In this document: one piece after another, positions 12,690 through 31,527 of the stretch
Position numbering within the stretch: position 1 is the first letter of the stretch
Layout of the letters: each line of letters starts with the position of its first letter
NCBI GenBank assembly: GCA_043758005.1
Contig: JAYVOI010000034.1
Span: forward strand, 1-31,527
DNA: 31,527 nucleotides
Direction: 5' to 3'
Source: Ilumatobacteraceae bacterium
GTDB lineage: Bacteria > Actinomycetota > Acidimicrobiia > Acidimicrobiales > Ilumatobacteraceae
Position numbers and translations under genes: made by a program
The notes under the pieces: generated by a model
What the model was told of the DNA's origin: nothing
Databases searched by the model: none
The model's input: only the letters and a program-made list of their open reading frames with translations

Positions 12690-13789
12690 CCGACCATCCG
12701 CAAACGGCTCTCGAAATCCTCGTGGTTGAGGTACGCGCCGCACAGCGTGCGCTTGCCGGTGTAGGCGCGCCGACCGTGCAGGGCGCGCCAGTTGTCGAAC
12801 AGCAATGCGTCGCCGGGTCGTAAGACTTCGCTCCATTGCATCGACTCGCTGTTGGCCAGATGGTCGAAGGCGCGCAGCGCGGTGTAGAGCTGTTCCATCT
12901 CGTCGGGCGGCAACAGGAACGGGGCGCGGTCGGAGTTGTTGTACGACACTTGCACGAGGGCGCCCGTGTGATCATGGCGAAAGACCGGTCGGGCCGCCAT
13001 CAGGTGCGAGCCATCGCCGATGTACTGGCCCGGAATCACAACCGTCGACAACACGTCGAACAACTCGGGCTCCTTGGCCCGGAACACCTCGGCGATCTTG
13101 AAGCCGTCGACCAGCGTCGACTCGCCACCGGTGCCGTCGAAGTACAGGCAATGCAGCATTTGCAATCCTGGGGCATCGTGGCTGTACGTGCCGTCGGTGT
13201 GTGCGGACAGGTAGTGGTTGGTGTACGCCAGATCGGCCTTCTTCAGGTCGGCGGTGAACTCCCAGAACCCGCCGAAGATGGTCTCGCGCACGTAGCCGAC
13301 GCGGCGGATGAGCGCCTCGGTAGCCGCGGCGGTTGCCGGGGTACCGGTCACGATCGCGAAGCCGTAGGTGGCCACCGTCGACAGCCACTGGTGCACACCT
13401 TCGTCGCTGCGCATCACGGCATCGTGATCAACGCGAATCGGGGCGTCGGCAATGGTGGCGTTGTCCCACACGACCGGTGGTTGCGTGGTCGCGATCCGCG
13501 CCGAATCCGGCGACCGGAACCGGTACAGGAACTCCACCGGCAGCTCCGACACGTCGGCGTCGCGCCACGTGATGCGGGCGACGAGGTGGTCGGCGGTGAC
13601 GGCTGCCGCTCGGAGATCTGGCGCCAACGCGGCGGTGTCGAGCAGGCGTTGCTGCGTGACGGGGTGGATCGTGGCGGCATCGGTGGCGTGATCGCGCAGC
13701 CACAGCCACGGGTACCAACTCTCTGTCCCGTCGTCCCAAGTGACGTGCAGGCAGGAGTCGGTCGGTTGGATCTGCTCGATGGTCGCCAC
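12686..13789 (-). CDS. Fe(II)/2-oxoglutarate dioxygenase, trimethyllysine dioxygenase / gamma-butyrobetaine hydroxylase family
   Basis: GBBH-like N-terminus (WLWLRDH...VTQQRLLD), VRETIFGGFWEF, AYTNHYLSAHTDGTY (HxD), HCLYFDGTGGESTLVDGF, LFDNWRALHGRRAYTGKRTLCGAY. Start GTG 13789. Confidence 0.85.
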   Translation of the reverse strand: MATIEQIQPTDSCLHVTWDDGTESWYPWLWLRDHATDAATIHPVTQQRLLDTAALAPDLRAAAVTADHLVARITWRDADVSELPVEFLYRFRSPDSARIATTQPPVVWDNATIADAPIRVDHDAVMRSDEGVHQWLSTVATYGFAIVTGTPATAAATEALIRRVGYVRETIFGGFWEFTADLKKADLAYTNHYLSAHTDGTYSHDAPGLQMLHCLYFDGTGGESTLVDGFKIAEVFRAKEPELFDVLSTVVIPGQYIGDGSHLMAARPVFRHDHTGALVQVSYNNSDRAPFLLPPDEMEQLYTALRAFDHLANSESMQWSEVLRPGDALLFDNWRALHGRRAYTGKRTLCGAYLNHEDFESRLRMVG

Positions 13790-13826
13790 CCGGCAATTCT
13801 GCCATCGAACCTGCAAGGCTGAAGCG
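13790..13826. promoter_or_regulatory. 37-bp divergent promoter with back-to-back putative -10 elements
   Basis: CAGAAT (minus, 13801-13796) and AAGGCT (plus, 13815-13820) each lie 6 nt before a GTG start. No SD sequences. Confidence 0.4.
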
Positions 13827-15218
13827 GTGACGACGGAAAACTACGACCTGATCATCGTCGGCACGGGCTCCGGCAACTCGGTCATCAGCAGCGAGATGGA
13901 CGGGTGGCGGATCGCCATCGTCGAGCGGTGGACGTTCGGCGGAACGTGCCTGAATCGCGGCTGCATCCCCTCGAAGATGCTGGTCTACGCGGCCGATGTC
14001 GCCGAGTCGGCCGCCAACGACAACGACCCGAAGTACGGCGTGACCACCCGGTTCGAATCCGCCGACTGGCCAGCCATCGTGCACCGCGTGTTCGGGCGGA
14101 TCGACGCCATCGTCGAGGGAGGTCGTGAGTACCGATACAACCTGCCCAACGTGACGGTGTACGAGGGCGACGCGCACTTCGTCGGCGAACGCACGCTGCA
14201 GGTCAACGCGACGACGATCACCGGCGATCGCATCGTGATCGCAACCGGGGCCCGGCCGTTCATCCCCGCCATCCACGGCATCGACGAGGTGCCCTTCCAC
14301 ACCAGTGACACCATCTTGCGCGCTGCCCACCAGCCGAAGCACCTCGTCGTGCTCGGTGGTGGTTTCATCGCTGCCGAGTTGAGCCACGTGTTCCGATCCC
14401 TGGGCTCGCGCGTGACCGTCATCAACCGCGGTCATCGTCTGCTGGGCGCGGAGGATCACGACATCTCCCACGCGTTCACCGAGTCGGTCGCCGACCGCTT
14501 CGAACTGGTGCTGGGGGCGCGCGTGGATCGCGTGTTCATGACAGCGCAGGGCGTCGGGCTCCGAGTGACGACCGCCGCCGGCGAGCAGGTGGTGGAGGGC
14601 GACACATTGCTGGTCGCCGCGGGCCGCATGGCGAACGGCGACCAGATCGACGCCCACCTGGCCGGAATCGAGATCGGCCCGATGAGCGAGGTGGTCGTCG
14701 ACGCATACGGCAGGACGAGCGCGCCGGGCATCTGGGCACTCGGCGACGTGAACGGGCGGCACCAGTTGAAGCACATGGCCAACGGGGAGGCCAACGTCGT
14801 ACGGCACAACCTGTTGCATCCCGACGATCTGCAACCGCTCGACCCCCGTCCTGCGCCCCACGCCGTGTTCGCCAGCCCCCAGGTCGGTGCAGTGGGCCTC
14901 ACCGAGGCGCAAGCCGACGCATCGGGTCGTACGTTCACGATGATCAGCCATGCCTACGGCGGCACCGCGTACGGGTGGGCGTTGGAGGACACCAGCGGGT
15001 TCTGCAAGTTGCTCGGCGACCCGGCAAGCCGCACACTGATCGGCGCCCACGTGATCGGCTACCAGGCGTCGTTGCTGGTGCAGTTGCTGGTGCAGGGGAT
15101 GCACCTCGGCAACACCGTCGACGAGTTGGCGATCGGTCAGGTGTGGATCCATCCGGCGCTGTCGGAGGTCGTCGAACAAGCCCTGCTCAAGCTGATCGAT
15201 GCCTTCGACCAGGCTTGA
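13827..15218 (+). CDS. mtr: Mycothione reductase (FAD-dependent disulfide reductase)
   Basis: DLIIVGTGSGN, redox disulfide GGTCLNRGCIPSKM, LGGGFIAAE, LKHMANGE, AYGWALED, WIHPALSEVVEQAL. Short N-terminal insert and these motifs fit Mtr better than lipoamide dehydrogenase. Start GTG 13827. Confidence 0.88.
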   Translation: MTTENYDLIIVGTGSGNSVISSEMDGWRIAIVERWTFGGTCLNRGCIPSKMLVYAADVAESAANDNDPKYGVTTRFESADWPAIVHRVFGRIDAIVEGGREYRYNLPNVTVYEGDAHFVGERTLQVNATTITGDRIVIATGARPFIPAIHGIDEVPFHTSDTILRAAHQPKHLVVLGGGFIAAELSHVFRSLGSRVTVINRGHRLLGAEDHDISHAFTESVADRFELVLGARVDRVFMTAQGVGLRVTTAAGEQVVEGDTLLVAAGRMANGDQIDAHLAGIEIGPMSEVVVDAYGRTSAPGIWALGDVNGRHQLKHMANGEANVVRHNLLHPDDLQPLDPRPAPHAVFASPQVGAVGLTEAQADASGRTFTMISHAYGGTAYGWALEDTSGFCKLLGDPASRTLIGAHVIGYQASLLVQLLVQGMHLGNTVDELAIGQVWIHPALSEVVEQALLKLIDAFDQA

Positions 15219-18368: not shown

Positions 18369-19403
18369 TCAGCGGGGAGGTCGAATCTCGCCGGAGCCGC
18401 GGGTGATCATCGCGGTCGGCACGATGTAGGTCTGCGTTGGCGACCGATCGCCGTCGAGTCGAGCGAACAACGTCGTCGCTGCCTGGCGCCCGATCGCCGC
18501 CGGATCCTGGGCGAGCACGGTGATGGCCGGGTCGAGGAGGTCGCTCATCGGCACGTCGTCGAACCCGACGAGGGCGATGTCGTGATGTTTCCCGGCTGCA
18601 CGGAGGCCGCGCACGACCCCGATCGTCACCAGGTTCTGGGCGGCGAAGATGGCCGTCGGGGGTTCGTCGAGCGACAAGAGATCGAGCGTTGTCGCGGTCG
18701 CGTGTTCACTGTCGAGGATGTCCTGCCGCACGAGGTCAGGCTCGACGAAGACTCCGTTCGCCTCGAGTGCATCGGCGTATCCCCGGCAGCGCTCGGCGGC
18801 CGTGACAATCGATCGCCGATCACCGAGAAATGCGATGCGCCGGTGGCCGTGCGCCATCAGGTGCTTCACGCCGCGGTGGGTTCCGTCGCGATTGTCCACC
18901 AAGACGGCGTCAGCGTCGAAGAAGGCCGGGGGGCGGTCGACGAAGACGATCGACATCCCCATTCGGCGCTCCTCGACGAGGTAGCTGTGGTCGTGGCTGG
19001 CGGGCATCATGATGAGGCCGTCGACGCGCCGCTCGGCGAACGCCTCGACGAGCTGACGTTCCCTCGCCGGGTCTTCGTCGAGACTCGATGCCAACACGAC
19101 GACGCCGCGGCGTGAGGCGATCTCTTCGATCGTGTGATGCACAGCGGCGTCGAGCGGGTTGGCGACGTTCGATGCAATCATGCCGACGGAGCGCGTCTTG
19201 CCGTCGCCGCGACGAAGGCTGCTCGCAGTCAGATTGTGGCGATAGCCGAGGCGATCGATGGCCGAGCGGACTCGCACACTGAGCTCGTCCGACACTCCCG
19301 ACTCGCCGTTGACCACCCGAGACACCGTCTTCAAGCTGGTGCCGGCAAGCGCGGCCACGTCGCGAATCGTCGGTCGGGGCCGCGCGTTGAGGGAATCAGA
19401 CAC
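18369..19403 (-). CDS. LacI-family transcriptional repressor
   Basis: HTH TIRDVAALAGTSLKTVSRVVN, hinge ASSLRRG, RVDGLIM, GHRRIAFLG, PTAIFAAQN, VGFDD. Likely start GTG 19403. Confidence 0.95.
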   Translation of the reverse strand: MSDSLNARPRPTIRDVAALAGTSLKTVSRVVNGESGVSDELSVRVRSAIDRLGYRHNLTASSLRRGDGKTRSVGMIASNVANPLDAAVHHTIEEIASRRGVVVLASSLDEDPARERQLVEAFAERRVDGLIMMPASHDHSYLVEERRMGMSIVFVDRPPAFFDADAVLVDNRDGTHRGVKHLMAHGHRRIAFLGDRRSIVTAAERCRGYADALEANGVFVEPDLVRQDILDSEHATATTLDLLSLDEPPTAIFAAQNLVTIGVVRGLRAAGKHHDIALVGFDDVPMSDLLDPAITVLAQDPAAIGRQAATTLFARLDGDRSPTQTYIVPTAMITRGSGEIRPPR

Positions 19404-19406
19404 GAT

Positions 19407-19417
19407 TGACAACGTTG
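19407..19417. promoter_or_regulatory. Secondary LacI-type operator overlapping the repressor's own promoter and start
   Basis: TGACAACGTTG gives 11 contiguous matches to the palindrome at 19497. Minus-strand TTGACA (19440-19435)-N17-CAACGT overlaps it. Confidence 0.6.
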
Positions 19418-19496
19418 GTCGTCATTGATCCACTTGTCAAGAAATAGGTCCACGAACACGGCCCTTGACAAAGGTCTGCTGGTTGTGGCTGAATTA

Positions 19497-19510
19497 TGAC
19501 AACGTTGTCA
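19497..19510. promoter_or_regulatory. LacI-type operator, perfect 14-bp palindrome TGACAACGTTGTCA
   Basis: Central CG with A/T flanks as in LacI-family operators. Lies downstream of TTGACA (19465-19470) and upstream of the sugar-binding protein gene. Confidence 0.8.
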
Positions 19511-19551
19511 AAGACAGCGTCCGTCCCAAACAATTTCCGAGGGGGAGATAC

Positions 19552-20691
19552 ATGACTGCAATGACTTCACGTCGCGGCGTGATCCGTACCGCCGTTACCG
19601 TCGGTCTTGCCGCATCGCTGGCTCTGGCTGCATGTGGCTCCGACACGAAAAGCTCGACAGCGACCAACGCGCCAGGTGCGACGACTGCTCCTGGGGGCAC
19701 GACTGGCGGGTCCGGGGGAACCGTCGGTGTGTCGCTGATCCTGAAGAACCTCAGCAACGCATTTTTCGTCTCGATGCAGAAGTCCGCCGAGGCTGCTGCG
19801 TCGAAGATCGGTGTCTCGCTGACCGTCGCCGCCGGCAAGGAAGACGGGGACACCGCCACCCAGATCTCCGCGATCGAGGCTGCCGTCGCCAAGGGTGACA
19901 AGGGGATCCTCATCACGCCGACCGGCGACGCAGTCGTGCCGGCCCTCGACGCCGCCCGCAAGGCCGGCCTGCTGGTGATCGCGCTCGACACGCCACCGAA
20001 TCCGGCAACCGCAGTCGACATCACCTTCGCCACCGACAACTACAACGCCGGGCAACTGATCGGTCAGTGGGCAGCGGGGCAGCTCGCCGGCAAGAAGGCC
20101 ACCATTGCGATGCTCGACCTGTTCAACGATCAGGTCGTCTCCGTCGACACCGGTCGTGACCAAGGCTTCCTGAACGGCATGGGCATCGTGAAGGCTGAAG
20201 ACAAGACCGGCAACGGCAAAGAGCCGGCGACCGGGAAGTACTCGGGCGGCGATTACGAAGTTGCGTGCCACGAGCCGACCAAGGGCGCAGTCGACGGCGG
20301 CAAGTCCGCCATGGAGACCTGCCTCGCCAAGAACCCCAACATCAACGTGGTGTACACGATCAACGAGCCCGCCGCCCAAGGTGCGGAGGACGCGTTGAAG
20401 GCTGCAGGCAAGGATGCTGGTGTGCTCATCGTCTCGGTTGACGGTGGCTGCAAGCCCGGTCTCGAACTCGTCGCCAGCGGCGTCATCGGCGCCACTGCAC
20501 AGCAGTACCCGGGCAAGATGGCGACACTCGGTATGCAGGCCATCAAGGACCTCGCCGACGGCAAGCCGGCACCGGCCGTCAGTCCCGGTCTGGACTTCTA
20601 CAACACGGGCGTCGCACTGGTGACCGACAAGGCAGTCGCCGGTGTCGACAGCATCTCGGTTGCCGACGGTCAGAAGATCTGCTGGGGCTGA
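19552..20691 (+). CDS. frcB: Sugar (fructose-type) ABC transporter substrate-binding lipoprotein
   Basis: Lipobox LAACG, VIALDTP, TFATDN, RDQGF, VVYTINEPAA, SVDGGC, VIGATAQQYP, TGVALVTDK and C-terminal CWG, as in FrcB-type proteins. SD GAGGGGG. Confidence 0.85.
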   Translation: MTAMTSRRGVIRTAVTVGLAASLALAACGSDTKSSTATNAPGATTAPGGTTGGSGGTVGVSLILKNLSNAFFVSMQKSAEAAASKIGVSLTVAAGKEDGDTATQISAIEAAVAKGDKGILITPTGDAVVPALDAARKAGLLVIALDTPPNPATAVDITFATDNYNAGQLIGQWAAGQLAGKKATIAMLDLFNDQVVSVDTGRDQGFLNGMGIVKAEDKTGNGKEPATGKYSGGDYEVACHEPTKGAVDGGKSAMETCLAKNPNINVVYTINEPAAQGAEDALKAAGKDAGVLIVSVDGGCKPGLELVASGVIGATAQQYPGKMATLGMQAIKDLADGKPAPAVSPGLDFYNTGVALVTDKAVAGVDSISVADGQKICWG

Positions 20692-20712
20692 CGCTCCGAC
20701 GAATTAGCATGC

Positions 20713-20743
20713 ACGGCGGGGCGGTACAACACCGCCCCGCCGT
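20713..20743 (+). terminator. 13-bp stem-loop between binding protein and permease genes
   Basis: ACGGCGGGGCGGT-ACAAC-ACCGCCCCGCCGT. This position is typical of hairpins that stabilise the SBP cistron. Confidence 0.65.
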
Positions 20744-20789
20744 TGCTGTCTCTGCTCACGCATCACCGCAACTGAACCAGGGGGTTCCG

Positions 20790-21824
20790 ATGGAGGCAAT
20801 CGACGCGTCCAGCGTCACAGCATCGTTCGACCAACCGCGCGGCCCCTTGGCACGCGTGCAGCACATCTTGCACAAGTACCCGGCAGTCAGCCCGGCGCTG
20901 GTTCTGGTGCTGTCGGGCGTCGTGTTCTCGTTGCTCGGCAAAGGCCGCTTCGACCGATTCGACACCTTCGGCATCATCCTCCAGCAAACGGCGGTCCTCG
21001 CCGCAGTGGCCATTGGTCAAACGGTGATCATTCTCACCGCCGGCGTCGACCTTGCCGTTGGCACCGCAATGCTGCTGACTCACCTCGTCGTTGCCAAGGT
21101 CGCGGTCGACCACGGGGTTCCGGGTTTTCTCGCCCTCCTGCTCGGCGTCGTGGTCGGCGTCAGCCTTGGTGCATTTCATGGCGGCCTCGTCACCAAGATC
21201 GGCCTGCCGCCGTTCATCGTCACGCTCGGCACGTTCTACATCTTCAACTCGCTCGGCTTGGTGTACAGCAAGGCCCAGACGATCTCCAAAGAAGAATTGG
21301 GAGGAGAACACTCGCTGCTGCTGTGGACGGGCAGGCAGATCTCGCTCGGATCGATGAAGATCACGACGGGTGTGCTGCTCGTGCTGGCGATGTACGTCGT
21401 CTTCGCGTTCATCCTTGCCAACACGGCGTGGGGCCGGCACGTTTACGCGACCGGTGATGATCGCGAGGCCGCCCGACTGGCCGGCATCAACGTCAACCGC
21501 GTCCTGCTCAGCGTGTACATGGTCGCCGGGCTGATCTACGCAATTGCTGGCTGGGTGCAACTCGGACGCTCGTTGTCGGCCAGCAGCAACGCCGCAACCG
21601 ACATCAACCTCGAATCGATCACTGCTGTCGTGATCGGCGGAACGAGCCTGTTCGGTGGCCGTGGACGGTTGTGGGGAACACTGATCGGTGCCCTCATCGT
21701 GACCGTGTTCAAGATCGGCCTCAGCCTGGCAGGCGTCAATCCCTACTACCAGAACTTCGCGATCGGGGCCCTGATCCTGGTCGCAGTAACGTTGGATCAA
21801 TGGATCCGGAGGGTGGGCAAGTGA
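20790..21824 (+). CDS. frcC: Sugar ABC transporter permease (RbsC/FrcC family)
   Basis: GQTVIILTAGVDLAVG, LPPFIVTLGT, WGRHVYATGDDREAARLAGINV, SITAVVIGGTSLFGGRG. Start ATG 20790. Confidence 0.88.
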   Translation: MEAIDASSVTASFDQPRGPLARVQHILHKYPAVSPALVLVLSGVVFSLLGKGRFDRFDTFGIILQQTAVLAAVAIGQTVIILTAGVDLAVGTAMLLTHLVVAKVAVDHGVPGFLALLLGVVVGVSLGAFHGGLVTKIGLPPFIVTLGTFYIFNSLGLVYSKAQTISKEELGGEHSLLLWTGRQISLGSMKITTGVLLVLAMYVVFAFILANTAWGRHVYATGDDREAARLAGINVNRVLLSVYMVAGLIYAIAGWVQLGRSLSASSNAATDINLESITAVVIGGTSLFGGRGRLWGTLIGALIVTVFKIGLSLAGVNPYYQNFAIGALILVAVTLDQWIRRVGK

Positions 21825-22609
21825 GCTCCGTTGACGATCGTCTCCAGCCCATCCTGTCGGCGCGTGGCCTGGTGAAGCGCTTCGGACGGGTGACAGCGCT
21901 CGTCGACTCCAACCTCGAGTTGTACCCGGGTGAGGTGCTCGGCGTCATCGGCGACAACGGCGCCGGCAAGTCGTCGTTGATCAAGTGCCTCTCGGGTGCC
22001 ATGGTTCCCGACGAGGGTGAGATCGAGCTGGAAGGCCAGCGGGTGCATTTCCGTCGGCCCTCCGACGCGCGGGCCGCGGGGATCGAAACCGTTTACCAGA
22101 CCCTCGCCGTCGCGCCGGCTCTCGACATCGCCAGCAACATGTTCCTCGCCCGCGAACGCCGCCGCCCCGGTCCGTTGGGAACGTGGCTGCGCATGCTCGA
22201 CACGTCGGGCATGCGTCGCGAGGCGCGCAAGACCATCCAGGATCTCGGCATCGGCACCATCCAAGACATCACCCAGACGGTCGAGACGTTGTCGGGCGGT
22301 CAGCGCCAGGCCGTTGCCGTCGCTCGCGCCGCCGCCTTCGGCAGCAAGGTTGTCATTCTCGACGAGCCGACCGCTGCGCTCGGCGTGAAGGAATCGGGAC
22401 TGGTGTTGCAGCTGATCAGGGATCTTCGTGACCGGGGTCTTCCTGTCATCTTGATCAGCCACAACATGCCTCATGTGTTCGAGGTGGCCGACCGCATTCA
22501 CATCCAGCGATTGGGGCAGCGGGTTGCTGTTGTCACCCCGAAGTCGCACACCATGGCAGATGCGGTCGCCATCATGACGGGCGCAGTCACCGTCGATCAC
22601 GCGGCCTGA
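21821..22609 (+). CDS. frcA: Sugar ABC transporter ATP-binding protein (single NBD)
   Basis: GDNGAGKSS, VYQTLA, LSGGQRQ, VILDEPT, ISHNMPHVFEVADRIHIQRLG. GTG overlaps the permease stop. Confidence 0.88.
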   Translation: MSSVDDRLQPILSARGLVKRFGRVTALVDSNLELYPGEVLGVIGDNGAGKSSLIKCLSGAMVPDEGEIELEGQRVHFRRPSDARAAGIETVYQTLAVAPALDIASNMFLARERRRPGPLGTWLRMLDTSGMRREARKTIQDLGIGTIQDITQTVETLSGGQRQAVAVARAAAFGSKVVILDEPTAALGVKESGLVLQLIRDLRDRGLPVILISHNMPHVFEVADRIHIQRLGQRVAVVTPKSHTMADAVAIMTGAVTVDHAA

Positions 22610-22622
22610 ACCCGCCACCGAG

Positions 22623-23540
22623 ATGATCGTCGTCGGGGGGGAGGCGTTGGTCGACCTGGTGATCGACCCCGACGGTTCGGTCATAGCGAAGCTGGGCGGC
22701 GGGCCGTTCAACAGCGCGCGGGCGATCGGCCGATTGGGGAGCGATGTCGCGTTCCTCGGGGCGTTGTCGCACGACCGCTTCGGCACGCTGCTGCATCGTC
22801 AACTGCTCCACGATGCAGTGGATGACTCGTTCGTGCAGTTCACCGACATGCCGACCACGTTGGCCTCGGCCGAGCTCGACGATCAGGGTGCCGCCACGTA
22901 TCACTTCTATCTCACGGAAACTGCTGCACCGAACCTCCATCCGCTGACCTTGCCGATTGGCGTACGGGTCCTCCACGTGGGGACCCTCGGTCTGGTCCTC
23001 GAGCCGATGGCGTCGACGTTGGAGACGATCGTCAACTCCTGCGACGACGACGTGCTCGTGCTGCTCGACCCGAACTGCCGCCCACGGGTCACCAGCGATC
23101 GGCTCGGGTACATCGCGCGGTTGCAACGGATGTTGCGGCGCGCGGATGTCGTCAAGGTCAGCACAGACGATCTCGAGTTCATCACCCCCGACGACCACGC
23201 TGCAGGAGTGAGGATGATGCTCGAGTACGGCGCGCATGTCGTCCTGCACACCGACGGTGGCCGCAGCGTGCACATCCACTGGGCGACGGCCGAAGTCGAA
23301 GTACCGGTTCCTGCCGTCGAGGTCGTCGACACCATCGGTGCAGGCGACGCGTTCGGCGGAGCGTTTGCGGCGTGGTGGGATCAAGCCGGCCTCGGTCGGC
23401 GCGACCTCGACGATGGCAGCGCGCTGCGCGCTGCAGTGGCTGCTGCGGTCGAGGTTGCCGCCGTCAGCTGCACACGCGTCGGTGCGCAGCCGCCGCGCCG
23501 CGACGAGCTCGGCGACAGGTGGAGGCCGACCGGTTCGTGA
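22623..23540 (+). CDS. PfkB-family carbohydrate kinase (probable fructokinase)
   Basis: GEALVDL, GGGPFNSARAIGRLG, LDPNCRP, VKVSTDDL, PfkB signature VDTIGAGDAF. Confidence 0.88.
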   Translation: MIVVGGEALVDLVIDPDGSVIAKLGGGPFNSARAIGRLGSDVAFLGALSHDRFGTLLHRQLLHDAVDDSFVQFTDMPTTLASAELDDQGAATYHFYLTETAAPNLHPLTLPIGVRVLHVGTLGLVLEPMASTLETIVNSCDDDVLVLLDPNCRPRVTSDRLGYIARLQRMLRRADVVKVSTDDLEFITPDDHAAGVRMMLEYGAHVVLHTDGGRSVHIHWATAEVEVPVPAVEVVDTIGAGDAFGGAFAAWWDQAGLGRRDLDDGSALRAAVAAAVEVAAVSCTRVGAQPPRRDELGDRWRPTGS

Positions 23541-24405: not shown

Positions 24406-25110
24406 TCACGGAACTGGTCGCAGCGCCTGGTCCTGCTCGGCGACGTGCAACGCGCCGCTCATGATCGCGACCACGTCGTCGGGGGCGAACACTACAGGGC
24501 TGACGACAGCGGCTCGCTTGCCCAGGCATTGCACGTGAATGCGGTCGGCGATGTCGAAGACCTGAGGGATGCTGTGTGACACGACCACGATCGGCAGCCC
24601 ACCCCGACGCAGGTGATCGATCAGCTTCCTCACGGCGATCGACTCGCGGGCACCGAGTGCCGCGGTCGGCTCGTCGAGGATGATCACCTTGCTGGCGACC
24701 TCGGCCGCCGACTTGCGCAGACCCTTGCTCTCCATCCAGGTGAAGACCGTGCCGAGCGGCCCGGGCGCGCTGGGCTCGCGATCGCGGTACAGGTTGTTCT
24801 TGAGATCGAGCGCAGGTTCCGCCTTGAGCGATTGGTAGACCGCGTTCACGCCGGCCATCCGACCGTCTCGCGCATTGCGGAACTGCGTCAACCTGCCGTC
24901 GAGGCGCACGACACCCTCGTCGGGGGGTTCGGCGCCCGACAGGCAGCGGACCAGGGTCGACTTGCCCGACCCGTTGTCGCCGACGACGGCCAGCACCTCG
25001 CCGGGATACACCGCGAAGTCGACGTGGTCGAGCGCCACCACCGTTCCGTACCGCTTCACCAATCGTTCGCCCTCGAGAGTCGGCAGGGTCGGGACGCCGG
25101 GGTCGCTCAT
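24406..25110 (-). CDS. FrcA-like ABC ATPase lacking the signature motif (degenerate or pseudogene)
   Basis: Walker A GDNGSGKST, Q-loop VYQ, Walker B IILDEPT and H-loop VVSH are present. About 35 aa including LSGGQ are absent relative to the paralog at 21821. Confidence 0.8.
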   Translation of the reverse strand: MSDPGVPTLPTLEGERLVKRYGTVVALDHVDFAVYPGEVLAVVGDNGSGKSTLVRCLSGAEPPDEGVVRLDGRLTQFRNARDGRMAGVNAVYQSLKAEPALDLKNNLYRDREPSAPGPLGTVFTWMESKGLRKSAAEVASKVIILDEPTAALGARESIAVRKLIDHLRRGGLPIVVVSHSIPQVFDIADRIHVQCLGKRAAVVSPVVFAPDDVVAIMSGALHVAEQDQALRPVP

Positions 25111-25970
25111 TCGTCGTCGCAGTCCGGAGGACGCGGTGAGCCGTCAGCGATCAGCGCAGCGTTCAACTCGGCGCCCCCGAGCGAGATCATTGCGTGGAGG
25201 CTGAGCCAGGTGAGTAGCCCGATCACCGACGCGAAGTCCTTTCCGTAGACGGGCGATGCCTTGGCGATAGCCCGCCCGACGATCGCCACCCCGAACGCCT
25301 GGAGTGCGGCGAAGAGCACGCCGCCGGCGATCGCGCCCGGCGCGACGCTGTGCCACGTCGGTCGCGTCGTGCGCAGCCACCGGTAGCTCAACGCCAACAC
25401 GCCAGCGTTGATGGCGACCGCTCCCGCGAGCAGCAGTACCGTGCCGACAACTGCGATGTTCGTGATCGTCGCGATGCTCGCCAAGATCGCGGCACCGATC
25501 TGAGCGCCGCCGACGTAGAGGATTCCCAGAAGCGCGTGCAGGCGCGTGACGAACAGATTGGCGCGATCGTCGAGCGGTACCCCGGCGATGTCGTCGAGTG
25601 CTCCGTGCACCGCGACGAACGCCTTCATCCCGCCCCACAGGCTGATCACCACACCAAGGATCAGCACCAGTGCGTTGCCTTCCAACTTGGACGGATCGGT
25701 TGCGATCTGGCCTCCCACGAAGGGAAGCTGCGCCAACGCCGAGTCCTTGATGTCGGTGAGCAGCTTCGCATTGTTCTGCAACACAAACCCCAGCACTGTC
25801 GTGAACACCAACAGCAACGGAAAGACCGAGATGAATCCGAAGTGGGAGATCAGGGCGGCGTTGCGCCCGCTGCGATGCTTGCGGAACCCTTCGATGGTCT
25901 GGACGGCGACATCGGCCGGGCGTGACTTGGCACGGAGCGTGCGAACCCGCGAGTACTCGGTCCAATTCAC
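25107..25970 (-). CDS. YihY / virulence factor BrkB family membrane protein
   Basis: AALISHFGFISVFPLL, LWGGMKAF, YRWL, APGAIAGG, YGKDFASVIGLLTWL, GGAELN; about six TMs. Confidence 0.88.
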   Translation of the reverse strand: MNWTEYSRVRTLRAKSRPADVAVQTIEGFRKHRSGRNAALISHFGFISVFPLLLVFTTVLGFVLQNNAKLLTDIKDSALAQLPFVGGQIATDPSKLEGNALVLILGVVISLWGGMKAFVAVHGALDDIAGVPLDDRANLFVTRLHALLGILYVGGAQIGAAILASIATITNIAVVGTVLLLAGAVAINAGVLALSYRWLRTTRPTWHSVAPGAIAGGVLFAALQAFGVAIVGRAIAKASPVYGKDFASVIGLLTWLSLHAMISLGGAELNAALIADGSPRPPDCDDE

Positions 25971-26058: not shown

Positions 26059-28107
26059 GTGCGACGGCCCGGTGTCAGCAACGTCGACCCCACTCGCGCA
26101 GTCGCGCTCGCCGCCATCGCAACCATCGTGGGCATTCAGCTGATCTTCTTCGGGCTGCCTCTGGGGTTGTGGCTCCACGGGTTGACGCTCGGTGGCCTGA
26201 ACGCCGTACTGGCGGTCGGCATGGCGTTGATCTACCGCGCCAATCGCGTGGTCAACTTCGCGCAAGCCGAGCTCGGCACCGTGCCGACCTCGTTCGCGGC
26301 CGCGTTCATCATCTTCTGGGGCTGGCCGTACCTGCTCGGGTTGGCCGCTGGGTTGGTGCTGTCGATCGTCGCCGGCGTGGTGATCGAGTTCGCCCTGATC
26401 CGCCGGTTCCGCAACTCGCCCCGGCTGGTGGTCACCGTGGCCACGCTGGGCATCACCCAGCTGCTGGTCGTGATCGGCATCCTGATCCCGAGGTGGTGGG
26501 GTCGCAACCTGGCGAGTGAACGCATCTCCCCTCCCATCGGGTGGAAGCTGACGATCGGCCAGGTGATCCTCAACGCCAACCATCTCATCGCCTTGGTCGT
26601 GGCGCCACTGATGATGGCCGGCGTTGCCTGGTTCCTTGCACGCAGCCGGTACGGCGTGGCGATCCGAGCCAGTGCCGAGCGGGGTGATCGGGCGGCAATG
26701 CTCGGCATCCCGGTGGGCCGGTTGAACACGCTGGTGTGGGCGATCGCTGCTGCCATGTCGTTCGTCGCCCTGTTCCTGCGCAGTGGGATCATCGGCGTGC
26801 CGGTCGGCTATGCCGCCGGGCTGCCGGCGTTGCTGCAATCCCTCGCCGCGTTGGTCATTGCCCGGCTCGAACGATTGCCGACCGTTGCTGCCGCGGCGAT
26901 CGCACTGGGCCTGTTGGAATCGGGTGTGCGCTTCAACTCCGACACGCCGGCCGCGGCCTACCCGATCATGGCGGCGGTGATGTTCGTCGTGTTACTCGTG
27001 CAACGAACTAGTAGCAACCGCCGCGACAACGACGCCGCCAGCACGTGGCGGGGTGCGGACGAAGTGCGGCCGTTGGCCCTCGCCGATCGGCGGCACCCGA
27101 ACGTGCGCATGGCCCGCTGGGCCCTGTGCATCGTCGGCCTCGGCGCCGTGGTCGGTGCGCCGATGGTGCTCAGCGTCGACTACATCATCAAGGCTTCGGC
27201 GATCTTCGCATTCGCGATCATCGGGCTGTCGCTCGTGGTGTTGACGGGGTGGGCCGGGCAGATCTCGCTCGGTCAGATGGCGATCGTCGGCGTCGGCGCG
27301 GCCGTCAGCGCCACCTGCACCTCGAGATGGCACGTCGACCTCACGCTCGGTCTGTTGATCGGTGGCTGTGCCGGGGGAGTGGTCGCCTTTGCTGTCGGTG
27401 TTCCGGCCTTGCGCCTGCGTGGGTTGTACTTGGCGGTGACCACGTTCGCCTTGGCATTGGCCACCGAGCAGTGGCTGCTCAGCGACCGGTTCTTCGGCTG
27501 GTTCCCGAAAGGAGATTCGCGATTCGAGCGGCCGCCGCTGTTCGGCCAGATCCGTCTCGACACCCCGACTCGCTACTACATGTACTCGTTGATCGTGCTG
27601 GCGCTGAGCTATCTGGCCACCCGGGGCATCCGCCAATCGCGGACCGGTCGGGTGATCATCGCCGTGCGCGAGAACGAGCGTGCCGCGCAGAGCTACTCGA
27701 TCCCTGCGGTGCGGGCCAAGCTGACTGCGTTTGTGATCTCGGGTGTGCTAGCGGGGATCGGTGGCGCACTGTTCACCCACCTCAACCAGTCGTTCAGCGT
27801 CACCAGCTACAGCACCGGCGAGAGCTTCAACGTCTTCACCTCGGCGGTGATCGGTGGCCTGGGCTCGCTGGGTGGCGGCATTCTGGGGGCCGTGTACCTG
27901 CGTGGCATCCGTTGGTTCATCACGTCGCAGGAGTGGCAACTGTTGTCGAGCGGTGCCGGTGTGCTGTTGGTGCTGCTGATCCTGCCGGGTGGGCTCGGCG
28001 GGTTGTGGGTCACCGTGCGCGACGTGATGGTGCGCCTGCTGGTGCGCAGCGCGCCGAAGGCCGTCGCCGATGCGCCCGTCGGCGTCCCGGTGGAGCCTGC
28101 AGCATGA
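26059..28107 (+). CDS. Branched-chain amino-acid-type ABC permease, fused LivH-LivM
   Basis: LivH half: GMALIYRANRVVNFAQAELG, SRYGVAIRASAE. LivM half: LTGWAGQISLGQ, LRLRGLYLAVTT, SRTGRVIIAVRENERAA, IGGLGSLGG. TACGGT lies 6 nt before GTG 26059. Confidence 0.9.
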   Translation: MRRPGVSNVDPTRAVALAAIATIVGIQLIFFGLPLGLWLHGLTLGGLNAVLAVGMALIYRANRVVNFAQAELGTVPTSFAAAFIIFWGWPYLLGLAAGLVLSIVAGVVIEFALIRRFRNSPRLVVTVATLGITQLLVVIGILIPRWWGRNLASERISPPIGWKLTIGQVILNANHLIALVVAPLMMAGVAWFLARSRYGVAIRASAERGDRAAMLGIPVGRLNTLVWAIAAAMSFVALFLRSGIIGVPVGYAAGLPALLQSLAALVIARLERLPTVAAAAIALGLLESGVRFNSDTPAAAYPIMAAVMFVVLLVQRTSSNRRDNDAASTWRGADEVRPLALADRRHPNVRMARWALCIVGLGAVVGAPMVLSVDYIIKASAIFAFAIIGLSLVVLTGWAGQISLGQMAIVGVGAAVSATCTSRWHVDLTLGLLIGGCAGGVVAFAVGVPALRLRGLYLAVTTFALALATEQWLLSDRFFGWFPKGDSRFERPPLFGQIRLDTPTRYYMYSLIVLALSYLATRGIRQSRTGRVIIAVRENERAAQSYSIPAVRAKLTAFVISGVLAGIGGALFTHLNQSFSVTSYSTGESFNVFTSAVIGGLGSLGGGILGAVYLRGIRWFITSQEWQLLSSGAGVLLVLLILPGGLGGLWVTVRDVMVRLLVRSAPKAVADAPVGVPVEPAA

Positions 28108-31004
28108 TGCGCGAGTTCGCAACCGCGTGCCGTCATCCGGGCGGATGGCTGCGCGAGATCTGCGGCGGCGAGGCCGCCTTCCCGCTCGTCGTGCTGTTCG
28201 GCCTCAACGCGGTCGACGAGCTCGACCGCACCGCGTTCGGAATCTTGCTGCCCAACATCCGCGACGAGTTTCACCTCGACAACACCAAGGTGCTCGGCCT
28301 CGTGGCTCTGGTGTCGGTGGCCGCGCTCGCGCTGCAGGTGCCGATCGCCCAGTATGCCGACCGCTCGCGCCGGGTTCCGCTGGCCATCGCGGGTGCGGTC
28401 GTGTGGGCGCTGTTCAGCGGACTCACCGGTCTGGCGACCGGTGTGATCATGCTGACGATCGCCCGCAGTGGCAGCTCGATCGGCAAGGCGGTGATCGACC
28501 CGACGCACAACTCGTTGATCGCCGACTACTACCCGATCAATGCGCGCAGCCGCGTGTTCAGCACCCACCGTGCCGCCAACGCCGTCGGATCGTTCGTCGG
28601 CCCGCTGGCCGCCGGGTTGTTGGCGTTCGCCTTCGGCTGGCGCGCACCGTTCCTGGTGTTCGTCATCCCGACGATCGTCTTCGCCGTCATCGCGCTGCGT
28701 CTGCGCGAACCGATCCGCGGCCGGTGGGAGCGCCAGGCGATGGGTGCCAGCGACGATGTGATCGCGACCGAGGAGACCGTGCCGTCGTACGCCGAGAGTT
28801 GGCGGACCGTGCAGAAGATCGAAAGCCTCAAGCGGATCTGGTGGAGCCTGCCGTTCCTCGCTACCGCACTCATCGGCTTCGTCGCGCTGGCGTCGCTGCT
28901 CTACGAGCAGGAGTTCGGTCTCGACGAGCGCGCCCGCGGCATCGCCTCGGCCATTGCCGAACCCTTCCAGCTCGTCGGCCTGGTGCTGGGTTCGCGCATC
29001 GTCACCCGGCGGTTCCTCGGTGACATGCGTGGTTTGATCCGTTTCCTTGCCAAGGTTGCAGTCGCCACCTCGATCGCCGCGATTGCATTCGCGATCGCAC
29101 CGAACATCGTCGTCGCTGTCGGCGTGAACTGCGTGATCTCGGCGTCGCTGGCGATGCTCGGTCCTGGCATCCTCGTGGCGCTCTCCCTGGCGATCCCGCC
29201 CCGCGCCCGAGCGACAGGCTTCTCCGTCGCCTCGCTGTGGGTCATCCCCGGGCTCATCGTGCTGCCGCTGATCGGCTGGATCTCCGGCCACGTCGGGATT
29301 CGCTGGGGGCTGCTGGTCCTGGTGCCGCTGTTCATCATCGGCAGCCTCGTACTCGGCAGCGCCGGGTCGGTGATCGATGCCGACATCGCCCAAGTGTGGC
29401 GCGCCGCCGCAGTGCGTAGCGAGGCGTTGTACCAACGCCGCCAGGGGCAGAGCGACCTGCTGCTCGTGCGTGGCGCCGATGCCGGCTACGGCGGCCGCCA
29501 GGTGCTGTTCGGCGTCGACATCGACATCAAGGAGGGCGAGATCGTCGCCCTCCTCGGCACCAACGGTGCGGGTAAGAGCACGTTGTTGAAAGTCATCAGT
29601 GGCGTGGTCGAGGCCGACCGCGGCGCGGTGGTGCTCGATGGCCGCGACATCACGCATGCACCACCCAACGAGATCGCGATGCTCGGCATCAGCCAGATGC
29701 CTGGCGGCCAAGGGGTCTTCGGCTCGCTGACCGTGGCCGAGAACTTGCGCCTGGCCGGGTGGACACGGCGACACCACCACGACGTGGACACCGCGATCGA
29801 GGAGATCCTCACCCTGTTCCCGGTGCTGCGCGAGCGGTACACGGCATCGGCGGCTGACCTCAGCGGTGGTCAACAACAGATGCTGGCGCTCGGCATGGCG
29901 TTCATCAGCAAGCCGCGCGTGCTGTTGATCGACGAGCTGTCGTTGGGCCTCGCGCCGGTGATCGTCGGTCAGTTGTTGCCACTGGTGCGCAGGCTGGCCG
30001 ATGATGGCGTGGCGGTGATCCTGGTCGAACAGAGTGTCAACGTCGCCCTCACGTTGGCCGAGCGTGCCTACTTCATGGAGCGCGGCATGATCCGGTTCGC
30101 GGGCCCGACGGCCGATCTGTTGAAGCGCCCCGATCTGTTGCGGTCGGTGTTCCTCACCGACATCGCCGCCTCGACCTCGTCGGCAGCGGAATCGACACCC
30201 ACCGACCAGATCGCCCTCGAGGTCTCCGGTCTCGGGCGGTCGTTCGGCGGCAACCGCGCCGTCAACGATGTGTCCTTCGCGGTCGTCAAGAACGAGATCG
30301 TCGGCATGATCGGGCCGAACGGCGCCGGCAAGACCACGCTGTTCGATCTGATCAGTGGATACGTGCCCTCAGACAGCGGGCGTGTTGTGCTCGACGGCCG
30401 AGAGGTCACATCGGATTCGGCTACGGTTCGCGCTCGCCGCGGTCTGGGACGCAGCTTCCAGGACGCACGCCTGTTCCCCGACATGACGGTCGCCGAGACG
30501 ATTGCGGTGGCCCTCGAGCGATGGACCACGCAACGCAGCGTGCTGGCTGCCGCATTGCGGTTCCCGACGGTGTTCGACGACGAGGAGCGCACCCACGTCC
30601 GCGTCGAGGAGTTGATCGAAGTGATGAACCTCGGCTCGTATCGCAACTCGTTCATCCGTGAGCTCTCGACCGGCACCCGGCGCATCGTCGATCTTGCCTG
30701 CCTGGTCGGCCACCGCCCGACAGTGGTGCTGCTCGACGAGCCCTCGAGCGGGATTGCCCAGCGCGAGGTCGAAGCGTTGGCGCCGGTGCTGTTGCGCCTG
30801 CGCGATGAGATGGGCGCCAGCCTGCTGGTGATCGAACACGACCTGCCGTTGATCTCAACGATCGCCGATCGATTGATCGCCCTCGATCAGGGGGAGGTGA
30901 TCGCCGTCGGCAGCCCGGCTGACGTGTTGACCCACCCCGACGTGGTAGAGAGCTACTTGGGGAACAACGCAGCAGCGCGGCAGCGCTCCGGCATCAGGGG
31001 ATAG
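28104..31004 (+). CDS. MFS permease fused to two ABC ATPase domains (LivF-like and LivG-like), 966 aa
   Basis: True start ATG 28104 overlaps the permease stop. Twelve TM helices with motif-A-like [11 protein letters not shown]1: GTNGAGKST (29556), LSGGQ (29859), LLIDELS. NBD2: GPNGAGKTT (30312), LSTGT (30663), [20 protein letters not shown]. Confidence 0.88.
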
Positions 31005-31008
31005 CCAC

Positions 31009-31527
31009 ATGCAGCCAGCCAGCTCGACAGGTGCTGATCGCAGCCGTCAGCTCCGCCGGTGGGGCCCGATCGCCGGCGTCGTCGTCCTGGTAGCGGTCGT
31101 CATCGGGCTGGTGGTGATCACCCGCGACTCCGGCAATGGAACCAGCTCGGCCACCACGGCGGTGGCACCGCAATCCACGGCCGTTGCCGCATCCACGTCG
31201 GTCGCACCGACCGGCACCACGACCCCCGGCGCCGACACCACGGCGGTCGGCACCACGACGCCGCCGGCCGCCGTCACCTACCCACTGTCGTATGCCGAGG
31301 CGACGTTGCAGGGCAAAGCAGACTCGATCGACTGGGGAAATCGGTGCGACACGTCGACCGGCAGGCTCGCCGTTCCCGACTACTTCGCCCCGGCGTGCTT
31401 TGCTCCCTTCACCGGCGACAACGGCGGTGCCACGGCGCCCGGTGTCACCGGCGACACGATCAACATCGTGTACTACGAGGGCCAGGAGACCGACCCGATC
31501 ATCGCCTACATCACCGACGCGATCAAG
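31009..31527 (+). CDS. ABC substrate-binding protein (LivJ/LivK-type), TM-anchored; runs off the window
   Basis: Not in the ORF track. Hand translation: MQPASSTGADRSRQLRRWGPIAGVVVLVAVVIGLVVI, Thr-rich linker, CDTSTGRLAVPDYFAPAC, DNGGATAPGVTGDTINIVYY, a start motif typical of actinobacterial Liv-type binding proteins. Confidence 0.7.
   Translation, partial: MQPASSTGADRSRQLRRWGPIAGVVVLVAVVIGLVVITRDSGNGTSSATTAVAPQSTAVAASTSVAPTGTTTPGADTTAVGTTTPPAAVTYPLSYAEATLQGKADSIDWGNRCDTSTGRLAVPDYFAPACFAPFTGDNGGATAPGVTGDTINIVYYEGQETDPIIAYITDAIK

Follow-up and report, generated by a model that had tools for sequence, protein, structure and literature searches.

A Spinster-Like MFS Domain Fused to Both ATPases of a Predicted Liv-Type ABC Importer in Actinomycetota

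Organization of the Locus

The window, i.e., the whole stretch of 31,527 nucleotides analyzed here from a contig of an Ilumatobacteraceae bacterium, contains a unit of three adjacent genes in the same orientation (table 1). The first encodes a fused LivH-LivM permease. The second is an open frame of 966 codons ending in TAG and encodes an MFS domain followed by a LivF-like and a LivG-like nucleotide-binding (ATPase) domain (NBD). The third, cut by the end of the window, encodes a putative binding protein. The preliminary description of this locus claimed an uninterrupted three-part fusion, which is confirmed by the ORF, Pfam, motifs, and an AF2 model, and its placement, with a LivHM permease on one side and a Liv-type binding protein on the other, is borne out by Pfam and the predicted fold of an orthologue of the latter.

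Table 1. Features of the three-gene unit, with positions in the window and basis of annotation.
Feature	Residues	Positions	Strand	Basis
Fused LivH-LivM permease	682 aa	26059..28107	+	Two BPD_transp_2 stretches, E 8.6e-52
MFS-LivF-LivG fusion gene (P0001)	966 aa	28104..31004	+	ORF, Pfam, homologues, contigs
Spinster-like MFS domain, 12 TM helices	20–423	28161..29372	+	Pfam, AF2, profile vs PDB, Foldseek
Connector	424–450	29373..29453	+	Full-length AF2 model
NBD1, LivF/UrtE-like	451–683	29454..30152	+	Pfam, family models, motifs
Ser/Thr-rich flexible NBD1-NBD2 linker	684–702	30153..30209	+	Low pLDDT
NBD2, LivG/UrtD-like	703–955	30210..30968	+	Pfam, family models, motifs
Putative binding protein, cut at window end	N-terminal 173	31009..31527	+	Homology to P0121 (119 bits)

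A GGAG sequence lies ∼8 nt 5′ of the ATG of the fusion gene, and this ATG overlaps the TGA stop of the LivH-LivM ORF as ATGA; the two genes read as translationally coupled. The halves of the permease match LivH/UrtB and LivM/UrtC models, with scores far below equivalog cut-offs. In the fusion protein, Pfam assigns MFS_1 to residues 32–378 (E 2.4e-36; profile positions 2–337 of 347), two ABC_tran domains, and BCA_ABC_TP_C (PF12399) to residues 931–955 (28.7 bits vs. a cut-off of 25.5).

Both NBDs carry the expected set of motifs. NBD1 has Walker A at residue 485, LSGGQ at 586, Walker B with its Glu at 606–611, and a variant H-loop, VEQ at 641–643 (inside ILVEQ, 639–643), in which Gln replaces His; VEQN is also present in LivF paralogues of the same genome, and the nearest solved chain is 1ji0 (E 5e-52). 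NBD2 has Walker A at 737, LSTGT at 854, Walker B with its Glu at 874–879, and an H-loop of IEH at 910–912 (inside LVIEH, 908–912). Family models place the fusion and the permease outside the named equivalogs: NF008449 (LivG) gives 282.8 bits (cut-off 362), NF008626 (LivF) gives 254 bits (cut-off 441), and UrtD, UrtB, and UrtC are all below their cut-offs. UrtE is the sole equivalog above its cut-off (300.3 vs. 285.8), with a score that sums two NBDs and makes the assignment unreliable. The asymmetry between LSGGQ and LSTGT, previously singled out as a possible cause of one slow site, finds no support as something special to this protein. LSTG is family-wide (among 47 members, S855 is invariant and L854, T856, and G857 are at least 90% conserved), and the signatures of the ordinary LivG paralogues in this genome, LPYGDQ and LPFGTL, are more degenerate than LSTGT, so that asymmetry between the two sites is usual in LivG/LivF pairs.

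The partial product of the third gene consists of one TM anchor, a spacer rich in Thr, Pro, and Ala, and the beginning of a conserved Cys-containing domain, and has no match in Pfam. Sequence searches of Pfam, NCBIfam, and the PDB likewise gave no match for the full-length orthologue, P0121 (596 aa). P0121 resembles Peripla_BP_6 by ESM Atlas features (0.98–0.99 to clusters that partly carry PF13458), and its predicted structure matches LivJ-like proteins (TM 0.76–0.77 by target). The predicted fold supports the downstream gene encoding a very divergent, membrane-anchored Liv-type binding protein. Genes outside the three-gene unit are not conserved and so give no clue to the substrate.

The Fusion Is Genuine and Widespread

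The source MAG is fragmented (389 contigs, 80.6% complete), as would suit an artefact from chimeric assembly or from a stop loss or frameshift that merged two adjacent genes. Yet the joint between the MFS and the NBDs is continuous, as had been claimed: four runs of a single study yield Logan contigs that span positions 29127–30336 without gaps or indels, although these runs may be the MAG's own source and so are not independent of the assembly. GC3 is even along the locus (0.88 in the MFS part, 0.86 in the NBD part, and 0.87 in LivHM). More than 100 full-length homologues with 75–98% identity derive from independent assemblies, full-length homologues in all number in the thousands, and relatives of the MFS domain are present in at least 555 genomes, counted as one genome per species. 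The MFS-NBD architecture is also present in closed genomes and in the cultured isolate Aquihabitans sp. G128. Together, the contigs, GC, closed genomes, and relatives refute an artefact for practical purposes and leave it a vanishingly small probability. In Actinomycetota, the design is widespread and of old standing. No study of an MFS-Liv ATPase fusion came up in literature searches, in agreement with the earlier statement that no characterized example was known.

The conserved link is between the MFS and LivF, because their in-frame joint is intact in all 37 Liv-linked loci examined, at identities down to ∼26%, while LivG varies. The fusion partner of the MFS is always LivF and never LivG or another protein, and a LivH-LivM gene adjoins the fusion in every locus. 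LivG is fused in 26 loci, encoded by a separate gene in 5, fused to LivHM in 2, and undetected in the fetched stretch in 4. The preliminary description named a stop or split between the MFS and NBD parts, in reads or relatives, as grounds for refutation. None is seen at the joint of MFS and LivF in these loci, with two qualifications: LivG was not seen fused to LivF in 11 loci, and four MFS paralogues are free-standing. Genomes have several paralogous systems that each possess a separate LivHM and MFS, and the MFS therefore diversifies along with the importer.

The free-standing MFS paralogues nest within the fused clade. A single fused clade is rejected (AU p = 0.0011); the test was devised once the tree was known, and the split that places the root has weak support (75). 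The topology indicates that the MFS was released as a free gene later, at least once. Because these paralogues fall inside the fused clade, the domain is probably able to function alone.

The MFS Domain Resembles Spinsters

The AF2 model of residues 1–440 (pLDDT 91, pTM 0.85) has 12 TM helices in a 6+6 layout. In searches of the PDB with the MFS family profile, HnSpns (6e8j) scores 125.8 bits (E 1.6e-35), followed by SPNS1 (94.7 bits, E 4.6e-26), DgoT (84.8), and SPNS2 (∼71). The best Foldseek matches of the model are SPNS2 and HnSpns, with small margins over MdfA and other MFS proteins. Judged by these comparisons, the domain is closer to Spinsters (TC 2.A.1.49; HnSpns, MsSpns, human SPNS1, and SPNS2) than to other MFS, which lends mild support to the earlier idea of a lipid-like substrate.

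In HnSpns, the Asp of the TM1 pair D41-R42 is paired to the TM4 Arg. In the protein described here, key residues of Spinsters are present at identical spacing, namely D41 of TM1, with R42 next to it, the Arg of TM4 (R121), the charge-relay Asp of D-Y-Y-P (D141), and motif A in the TM2–TM3 loop (D86-R87-x-x-R90). D86, R87, and R90 are kept in at least 57 of 59 fused members, R121 in 57, and D41 in 52. Across ∼41 effective sequences with 26–100% identity to the query, motif A, R121, D141, W179-R180 of GWR, and E202-P203-x-R205-G206 are invariant or nearly so. In the same homologues, conservation is 78–81% in the MFS part versus 76–78% in the NBD part, and the C-domain of the MFS is far less conserved than its N-domain. 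Conservation of the motifs shows selection on the fold and gating network rather than transport as such.

One position departs from Spinsters, and another varies within the family. The TM4 Glu is an intracellular proton master switch in HnSpns (E129; PMC9440201) and in MsSpns (E126; doi 10.64898/2026.05.09.724020). K128 aligns to this residue without gaps, and the position is Arg or Lys in 45 of the 59 fused members and Glu or Asp in four. R42, at the position of the substrate-binding Arg of HnSpns, is present here but variable in the fused family (26 of 59). The replacement of Glu by Lys/Arg is compatible with the proposal, made in the preliminary description, that the tethered MFS might gate ATPase activity.

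The domain also differs from Spinsters in that its C-terminus is fused to ABC ATPases. In the full-length AF2 model, TM12 is predicted to extend as one helix straight to the first strand of NBD1 (H399–422, H424–446, and E451–462, with pLDDT of about 79–92), and D427 of the connector is invariant, free-standing paralogues included. The linker between NBD1 and NBD2 has a pLDDT of 32–34 (residues 681–700). The best structural match of the tandem NBDs is ATP-bound DppD of M. tuberculosis (8wdb_D, TM by target 0.66).

Comparison with Known Systems

The locus shares its core with HAAT importers (TC 3.A.1.4; LivJ/K-LivHMGF of E. coli and UrtABCDE of cyanobacteria): a permease with two BPD_transp_2 domains, a LivG-type NBD with a BCA_ABC_TP_C tail, and a LivF-type NBD whose H-loop is VEQ. 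Predicted structure and ESM Atlas features add a putative binding protein of type-I fold. In contrast to those importers, the parts are all fused or re-anchored, LivF precedes LivG, a 12-TM MFS domain is attached to LivF, and the binding protein is ∼600 aa, TM-anchored, and invisible to Pfam. DppABCD and OppABCD of M. tuberculosis are likewise actinobacterial binding-protein-dependent importers with both NBDs on one chain, the D subunit, but they are of the PepT type, and their ATPase chain has no membrane domain and has Fe-S cluster C-terminal regions.

Extra domains on importer ATPases have precedents. MalK, MetN, and ModC have fused C-terminal regulatory domains. In NrtC, a binding-protein-like domain is fused to an ABC ATPase (PMC10945777). 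As in these proteins, a domain covalently attached to an importer NBD could modulate the ATPase cycle. Their domains are soluble, C-terminal, and ligand-sensing, whereas the one described here is N-terminal, membrane-integral, and has a transporter fold.

Proposed Function

The three genes are predicted to encode a Liv/HAAT-type binding-protein-dependent ABC importer made of three polypeptides: a LivH-LivM permease, an anchored Liv-type binding protein of divergent sequence, and a single chain with both ATPases, of which the LivF-type bears a complete Spinster-like MFS at its N-terminus. Because a short rigid helix ties TM12 to the ATPase, the geometry implies that the MFS bundle would sit beside LivHM in the membrane. 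The MFS may still be a working alternating-access transporter rather than a dead anchor. It would share the task of the importer by handling an amphipathic or lipid-like substrate, or by counter-flux of substrate or product, and its inner gate would be influenced by the ATPase cycle. The preliminary description had offered four possible tasks for the MFS, i.e., export of a product, re-export of excess substrate, passing on of a lipid-like substrate, and gating of ATPase activity. We tentatively favor the reading in which the MFS module works and is coupled to a binding-protein-dependent importer, and give it as a whole somewhat less than an even chance.

Alternatively, the MFS may not transport and may be a membrane-embedded accessory of the importer, serving the ATPases as an anchor or as a scaffold for assembly, or acting as a sensor (transceptor) that signals a membrane or external ligand to the ATPase. 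Such a role would be analogous to that of the regulatory domains fused to MalK, MetN, and NrtC, and several features are consistent with it, including the prevalence of Lys/Arg in place of the proton-switch Glu, loss of the Arg42 equivalent in about half of the members, the weaker conservation of the C-domain, and the fact that the invariant link is to the ATPase, via a rigid helix. We consider it rather unlikely. Motif A and charge-relay residues are invariant across deep divergence, beyond the needs of an anchor, and the predicted fold is that of a complete 12-helix MFS. Moreover, free-standing descendants with the same Lys/Arg persist in complete genomes, where no Liv gene lies within 8 kb of them.

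It is similarly doubtful that the chain comprises two independent transporters, with a Spinster-like carrier powered by protons or a gradient and an importer powered by ATP acting on related substrates, e.g., for high- and low-affinity uptake or for uptake and safety-valve efflux. Fusion would then only secure 1:1 co-expression and co-localization, with no mechanical or allosteric coupling. Each half looks complete and functional alone, as far as sequence and models indicate, and the MFS was freed as a separate gene at least once. LivG switches freely between fused and separate states, implying that fusions here can be neutral packaging. The joint of the MFS and LivF does not behave in this manner, being unbroken across the Liv-linked loci and always with the same partner, and the connector is short and predicted to be helical, as opposed to the disordered linker between NBD1 and NBD2.

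A more specific mechanism can also be envisaged. With Lys/Arg in place of the switch Glu, the inner gate of the MFS might be set not by protonation but by closing and opening of the LivF-LivG dimer, transmitted via the rigid TM12-NBD1 helix. The result would be an MFS that is gated or driven by ATP and acts in concert with the binding-protein-dependent ABC importer, moving, for example, an amphipathic substrate or counter-substrate once per ATPase cycle. We regard this hybrid engine as speculative and quite improbable.

MFS and ABC are the two largest transporter superfamilies and are treated as mechanistically separate, one using ion gradients and the other ATP. Here, an ABC importer has a complete MFS joined to its ATPase, and the union is kept across Actinomycetota, including abundant Acidimicrobiia of soil, sediment, freshwater, and wastewater. 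As read from sequences and models, what is new is the affinity to Spinsters, the retention of motif A, the TM1 Asp, and the TM4 Arg together with Lys/Arg at the proton-switch position, the nested free paralogues, and the predicted helix from TM12 to NBD1. If the halves communicate, they would provide the first natural example of an MFS fold coupled to an ATP engine, and Spinster biology would gain a bacterial system with a rewired proton switch. If they are independent, they still represent a widespread, unannotated class of transporter. Annotation pipelines label the fusion "MFS transporter" or "branched-chain amino acid ATP-binding protein," which hides its nature in metabolic reconstructions.

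Integrity of the Fusion Gene

The joining of an MFS carrier to both Liv-type ATPase (nucleotide-binding) domains (NBDs) in one chain, proposed in the preliminary description, is real. Codon-position GC is 0.67/0.47/0.87, and GC at third positions (GC3) is alike in the MFS (0.88) and NBD (0.86) portions and in the upstream gene encoding the fused LivH-LivM permease, LivHM (0.87). Read mapping was suggested there as a check; at the level of assembled run contigs, the MFS/NBD joint is crossed: Logan contigs from four metagenome runs of one study cover 29127-30336 without gaps, and no indels were reported in them across 28000-31100. Because these runs may be the source of the metagenome-assembled genome (MAG) itself, the contigs are not independent of the assembly. 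Independent support is provided by more than 100 full-length homologues (955–985 aa; 75–98% identity) with MFS_1 and ABC_tran in ENA, JGI, NCBI, and Logan assemblies, which are labeled either "MFS transporter" (Ilumatobacteraceae and Acidimicrobiaceae) or [quoted passage not shown]. The joint-crossing contigs, uniform GC3, and many homologues rule out a misassembly or lost stop codon, leaving a negligible chance that the ORF is an artifact. Contig depth jumps from ∼50 to ∼14,000 at 30288-30391, the NBD2 Walker A region, whose words also occur in ABC ATPases from numerous other members of the metagenome; the jump is not a copy-number signal.

The MAG (3.15 Mb, 389 contigs, 80.6% complete) carries one copy of the fusion and several ordinary LivG/LivF pairs.

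Genes of the window and features of the fusion gene and its protein
Feature	Position	Strand	Remarks
TauD-family dioxygenase	12686-13816	-	gamma-butyrobetaine-hydroxylase-like N-terminal domain
Pyridine-nucleotide disulfide oxidoreductase	13740-15218		adjoins TauD-family gene
LacI-family regulator	18369-19412	-	separate sugar-type ABC system, 18369-23540
BPD_transp_2 permease	20709-21824		same sugar-type ABC system
ABC ATPase	21671-22609		same sugar-type ABC system
PfkB kinase	22623-23540		same sugar-type ABC system
BrkB/YihY-family membrane protein gene	25107-25970	-	divergently upstream of LivHM
Fused LivH-LivM permease (LivHM)	26059-28107	+	upstream of fusion gene; Pfam and NCBIfam
Fusion ORF	28104-31004	+	966 open codons, TAG end
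Fusion-gene start			ATG overlapping upstream TGA as ATGA; GGAG ∼8 nt 5'
MFS_1	residues 32-378 of fusion protein		Pfam E 2.4e-36, profile positions 2-337 of 347
Two ABC_tran domains	fusion protein		Pfam
BCA_ABC_TP_C (LivG-specific tail)	residues 931-955 of fusion protein		Pfam
Binding-protein ORF	31009 onward, 173 residues to window end	+	TM anchor, Thr/Pro/Ala-rich spacer; no Pfam match

Distribution and Variation in Architecture

Relatives of the MFS domain are encoded in at least 555 genomes, counted one per species, and the top 80 are MAGs of Acidimicrobiia without exception. Searched alone against 1.84 billion representatives, the MFS part matches 333 clusters (50% identity) at E ≤ 1e-30. 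At E ≤ 1e-15, 45 of 401 sampled Actinomycetota genomes match; in one actinobacterial family, all 10 genomes matched, with at least four matches per genome. ESM Atlas clusters that combine MFS_1 and ABC_tran are all commonest in Actinomycetota, and Aquihabitans sp. G128 (protein P0329) is a cultured carrier of the fusion.

A domain-architecture search was outlined in the preliminary description; six-frame domain mapping of 40 retrieved loci identified a constant feature. In every one of the 37 Liv-linked loci, the window included, the MFS and a LivF-type NBD share one reading frame, next to a LivH-LivM gene. A LivG-type NBD comes after them on the same chain in 26 of the 37; in the other 11, LivG is a separate gene (e.g., loci L042-L044, L049, and L056), is fused to LivH-LivM (L060 and L061), or was unseen in the fetched stretch. 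This pattern indicates that the MFS-LivF joint is constant while all else is shuffled. Pfam architectures of database members include MFS-NBD-NBD chains of ∼1,000 aa and MFS-NBD chains of ∼710–780 aa. Most near relatives also have one to three adjacent genes of the binding-protein family.

Open frames of ∼1,700 aa were considered as five-domain single chains, but six-frame mapping places LivHM in a different frame; they are therefore overlaps, not fusions. Three proteins from metagenome contigs of 40–140 kb (P0233, P0277, and P0335) are rare single ORFs of LivH-LivM plus MFS without an NBD; they are either a further real fusion variant or, as is probable, frameshift artifacts. One paralogue group, from a different actinobacterial family, has a conserved ORF of ∼285 aa directly 3' of the fusion gene (L034:10913-11779, L035:10937-11800, L036:10955-11797, and L037:10992-11816; mutual identity 38–41%). 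The L034 copy, the sole one with a Pfam table, has no Pfam family. At these four loci, binding-protein genes are on the opposite strand, further downstream.

A Spinster-Like MFS Domain with an Altered Proton Switch

The MFS domain is most similar to Spinster carriers. The top match of a single-sequence PDB search was the bacterial Spinster HnSpns (6e8j), across the N-half only. A PDB profile search built from 25 family members matched HnSpns nearly full length (E 1.6e-35), followed by human SPNS1 (4.6e-26), DgoT (4.5e-23), and SPNS2 (about 6e-19). The AF2 model of residues 1-440 has twelve TM helices (pLDDT 91, pTM 0.85), and its top Foldseek matches are SPNS2 and HnSpns (TM 0.77–0.80), with MdfA and other MFS close behind. 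Among ∼41 effective sequences with 26–100% identity to the query, invariant or near-invariant residues are those of motif A (D86-R87-x-x-R90), TM4 R121, D141 in a D-Y-Y-P segment, the GWR motif (W179-R180), E202-P203-x-R205-G206, R278, R369, and D427.

In HnSpns, TM4 Glu129 serves as the master switch for protonation on the intracellular side, Asp41 and Arg122 form a pair, Arg42 becomes able to bind substrate when released from Glu129, and Asp142 is part of the motif-A charge relay (PMC9440201). Glu126 plays the same switch role in MsSpns, another bacterial Spinster (doi 10.64898/2026.05.09.724020). The HMMER alignment has no gaps from the TM4 Arg to D-Y-Y-P, and the HnSpns residues map to D41, R42, R121, K128, and D141. 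At the position of the Glu switch, 45 of 59 fused members and 8 of 10 free-standing ones have Arg or Lys, and only four of the fused members have an acidic residue; R42 is retained in 26 of the 59. Thus, compared with characterized Spinsters, the MFS of the fusion keeps the gating scaffold but is without their proton switch. We attempted to date the change from Glu to Lys/Arg relative to the fusion event, but the outgroup MFS that were fetched are not Spinster-like at this site.

Free-standing copies bear on whether the MFS still functions. Four MFS genes (loci L038-L041) stop right after TM12, and no Liv genes are within 8 kb of them. A maximum-likelihood tree was computed from 47 genome-verified MFS domains, with other actinobacterial MFS as the root; in it, the four free-standing copies branch among the fused domains, under a node of support 98. 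Forcing all fused domains to one side of a branch cost 26.2 log-likelihood units (AU p = 0.0011), for a group defined after inspection of a tree whose root split has a support of 75 and which has two long outgroup branches. The simplest reading of the tree is that the free copies reflect secondary loss of an NBD, implying that the MFS module can live alone. Stand-alone viability argues against a dead anchor, and a role of the MFS as a nontransporting accessory or sensor domain is, in our view, unlikely.

ATPase Domains and Predicted Structure

NBD1 of the fusion is nearest LivF/UrtE and NBD2 nearest LivG/UrtD in NCBIfam. UrtE matched above its cut-off, but a urea transporter assignment based on this match was rejected: UrtB, UrtC, and UrtD score well short of their cut-offs, and the UrtE score is discounted because it sums two NBDs. 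Each NBD contains Walker A and a Walker B that includes the catalytic Glu; the H-loop reads VEQ in NBD1 and IEH in NBD2. The ABC signatures are LSGGQ at 586 and LSTGT at 854. The preliminary description suggested that this asymmetry may give one slow site. The idea that it sets the fusion apart is not supported. Ordinary LivG paralogues of the same genome have LPYGDQ or LPFGTL at the signature and their LivF partners have LSGGEQ; therefore, asymmetric sites are a general LivG/LivF trait. Across the family, S855 of NBD2 is the same in every member, and L854, T856, and G857 each show conservation of 90% or more. If anything, the fused LivG appears closer to consensus than the ordinary ones.

In the full-length AF2 model (pLDDT 85.9, pTM 0.68), predicted TM12 (399-422) is prolonged by a helix (424-446) that leads into the first NBD1 strand (451), and the linker between NBD1 and NBD2 (681-700) is disordered. 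Its closest PDB matches are tandem-NBD chains, the top being ATP-bound Mycobacterium tuberculosis DppD (8wdb_D; TM 0.66 by target). The MFS and an NBD together are not covered by any solved PDB chain, 0.39 being the highest TM by query.

Operon Context and Candidate Function

An orthologous locus with 76% identity (L001) encodes, together, LivHM (690 aa), the fusion (975 aa), and a 596-aa protein without a Pfam family (P0121), the full-length orthologue of the truncated ORF downstream of the fusion. The proposal that this ORF encodes a binding protein gains support from P0121. It has no sequence matches in Pfam, NCBIfam, or PDB, but in the ESM Atlas it adjoins clusters that partly carry Peripla_BP_6 (feature score 0.98–0.99), and residues 137-562 of its predicted structure superpose on LivJ-like binding proteins (TM 0.76–0.77 by target). 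The putative binding protein is unusually large, TM-anchored, and very divergent. Its spacer is followed by a conserved Cys-containing segment, C-D-T-x-T-G-R-L-A-V-P-D-Y-F-A-P-x-C (window 31300-31527; P0121 residues 90-140), outside the part that superposes. For LivHM, no solved structure matches by sequence at E up to 0.001.

We tentatively suggest that the core would be a binding-protein-dependent importer of HAAT type, whose LivF ATPase would hold a still-working Spinster-like carrier beside the permease. The carrier would act on the same task as the importer and would probably be influenced by the ATPase cycle. That the chain instead packages two independent transporters together is doubtful. 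The fusion is not known to have a characterized example, as the preliminary description stated, and literature searches turned up no publication on an MFS-ABC(Liv) architecture. New here are the assignment to Spinsters at profile level, the changed residue at the proton-switch position, the free MFS copies nested in the fused clade, the helical connector between TM12 and NBD1, the joint checked in assembled run contigs, and the finding that signature asymmetry is ordinary.

Nothing is conserved outside the three-gene unit: no Pfam family is common to more than three of 41 flanking ORFs from 26 loci. Neighboring genes were dropped as a clue to substrate, since flanks are unshared and those in the window (the divergent BrkB-like gene, a sugar-type ABC system with LacI and PfkB, and a TauD-like dioxygenase) are unrelated. 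A BrkB/YihY gene is likewise divergent upstream of LivHM in L001 (6259-7158, minus strand), which may be plain synteny of close relatives. Adjoining the BrkB-like gene of the window is a 234-aa ORF (24406-25110, minus strand) that covers only the first two thirds of ABC_tran (profile positions 1-96 of 137). It has two weak NBD matches, split between 24433-24690 and 24811-25077, and might represent an ABC ATPase that has decayed or diverged strongly.
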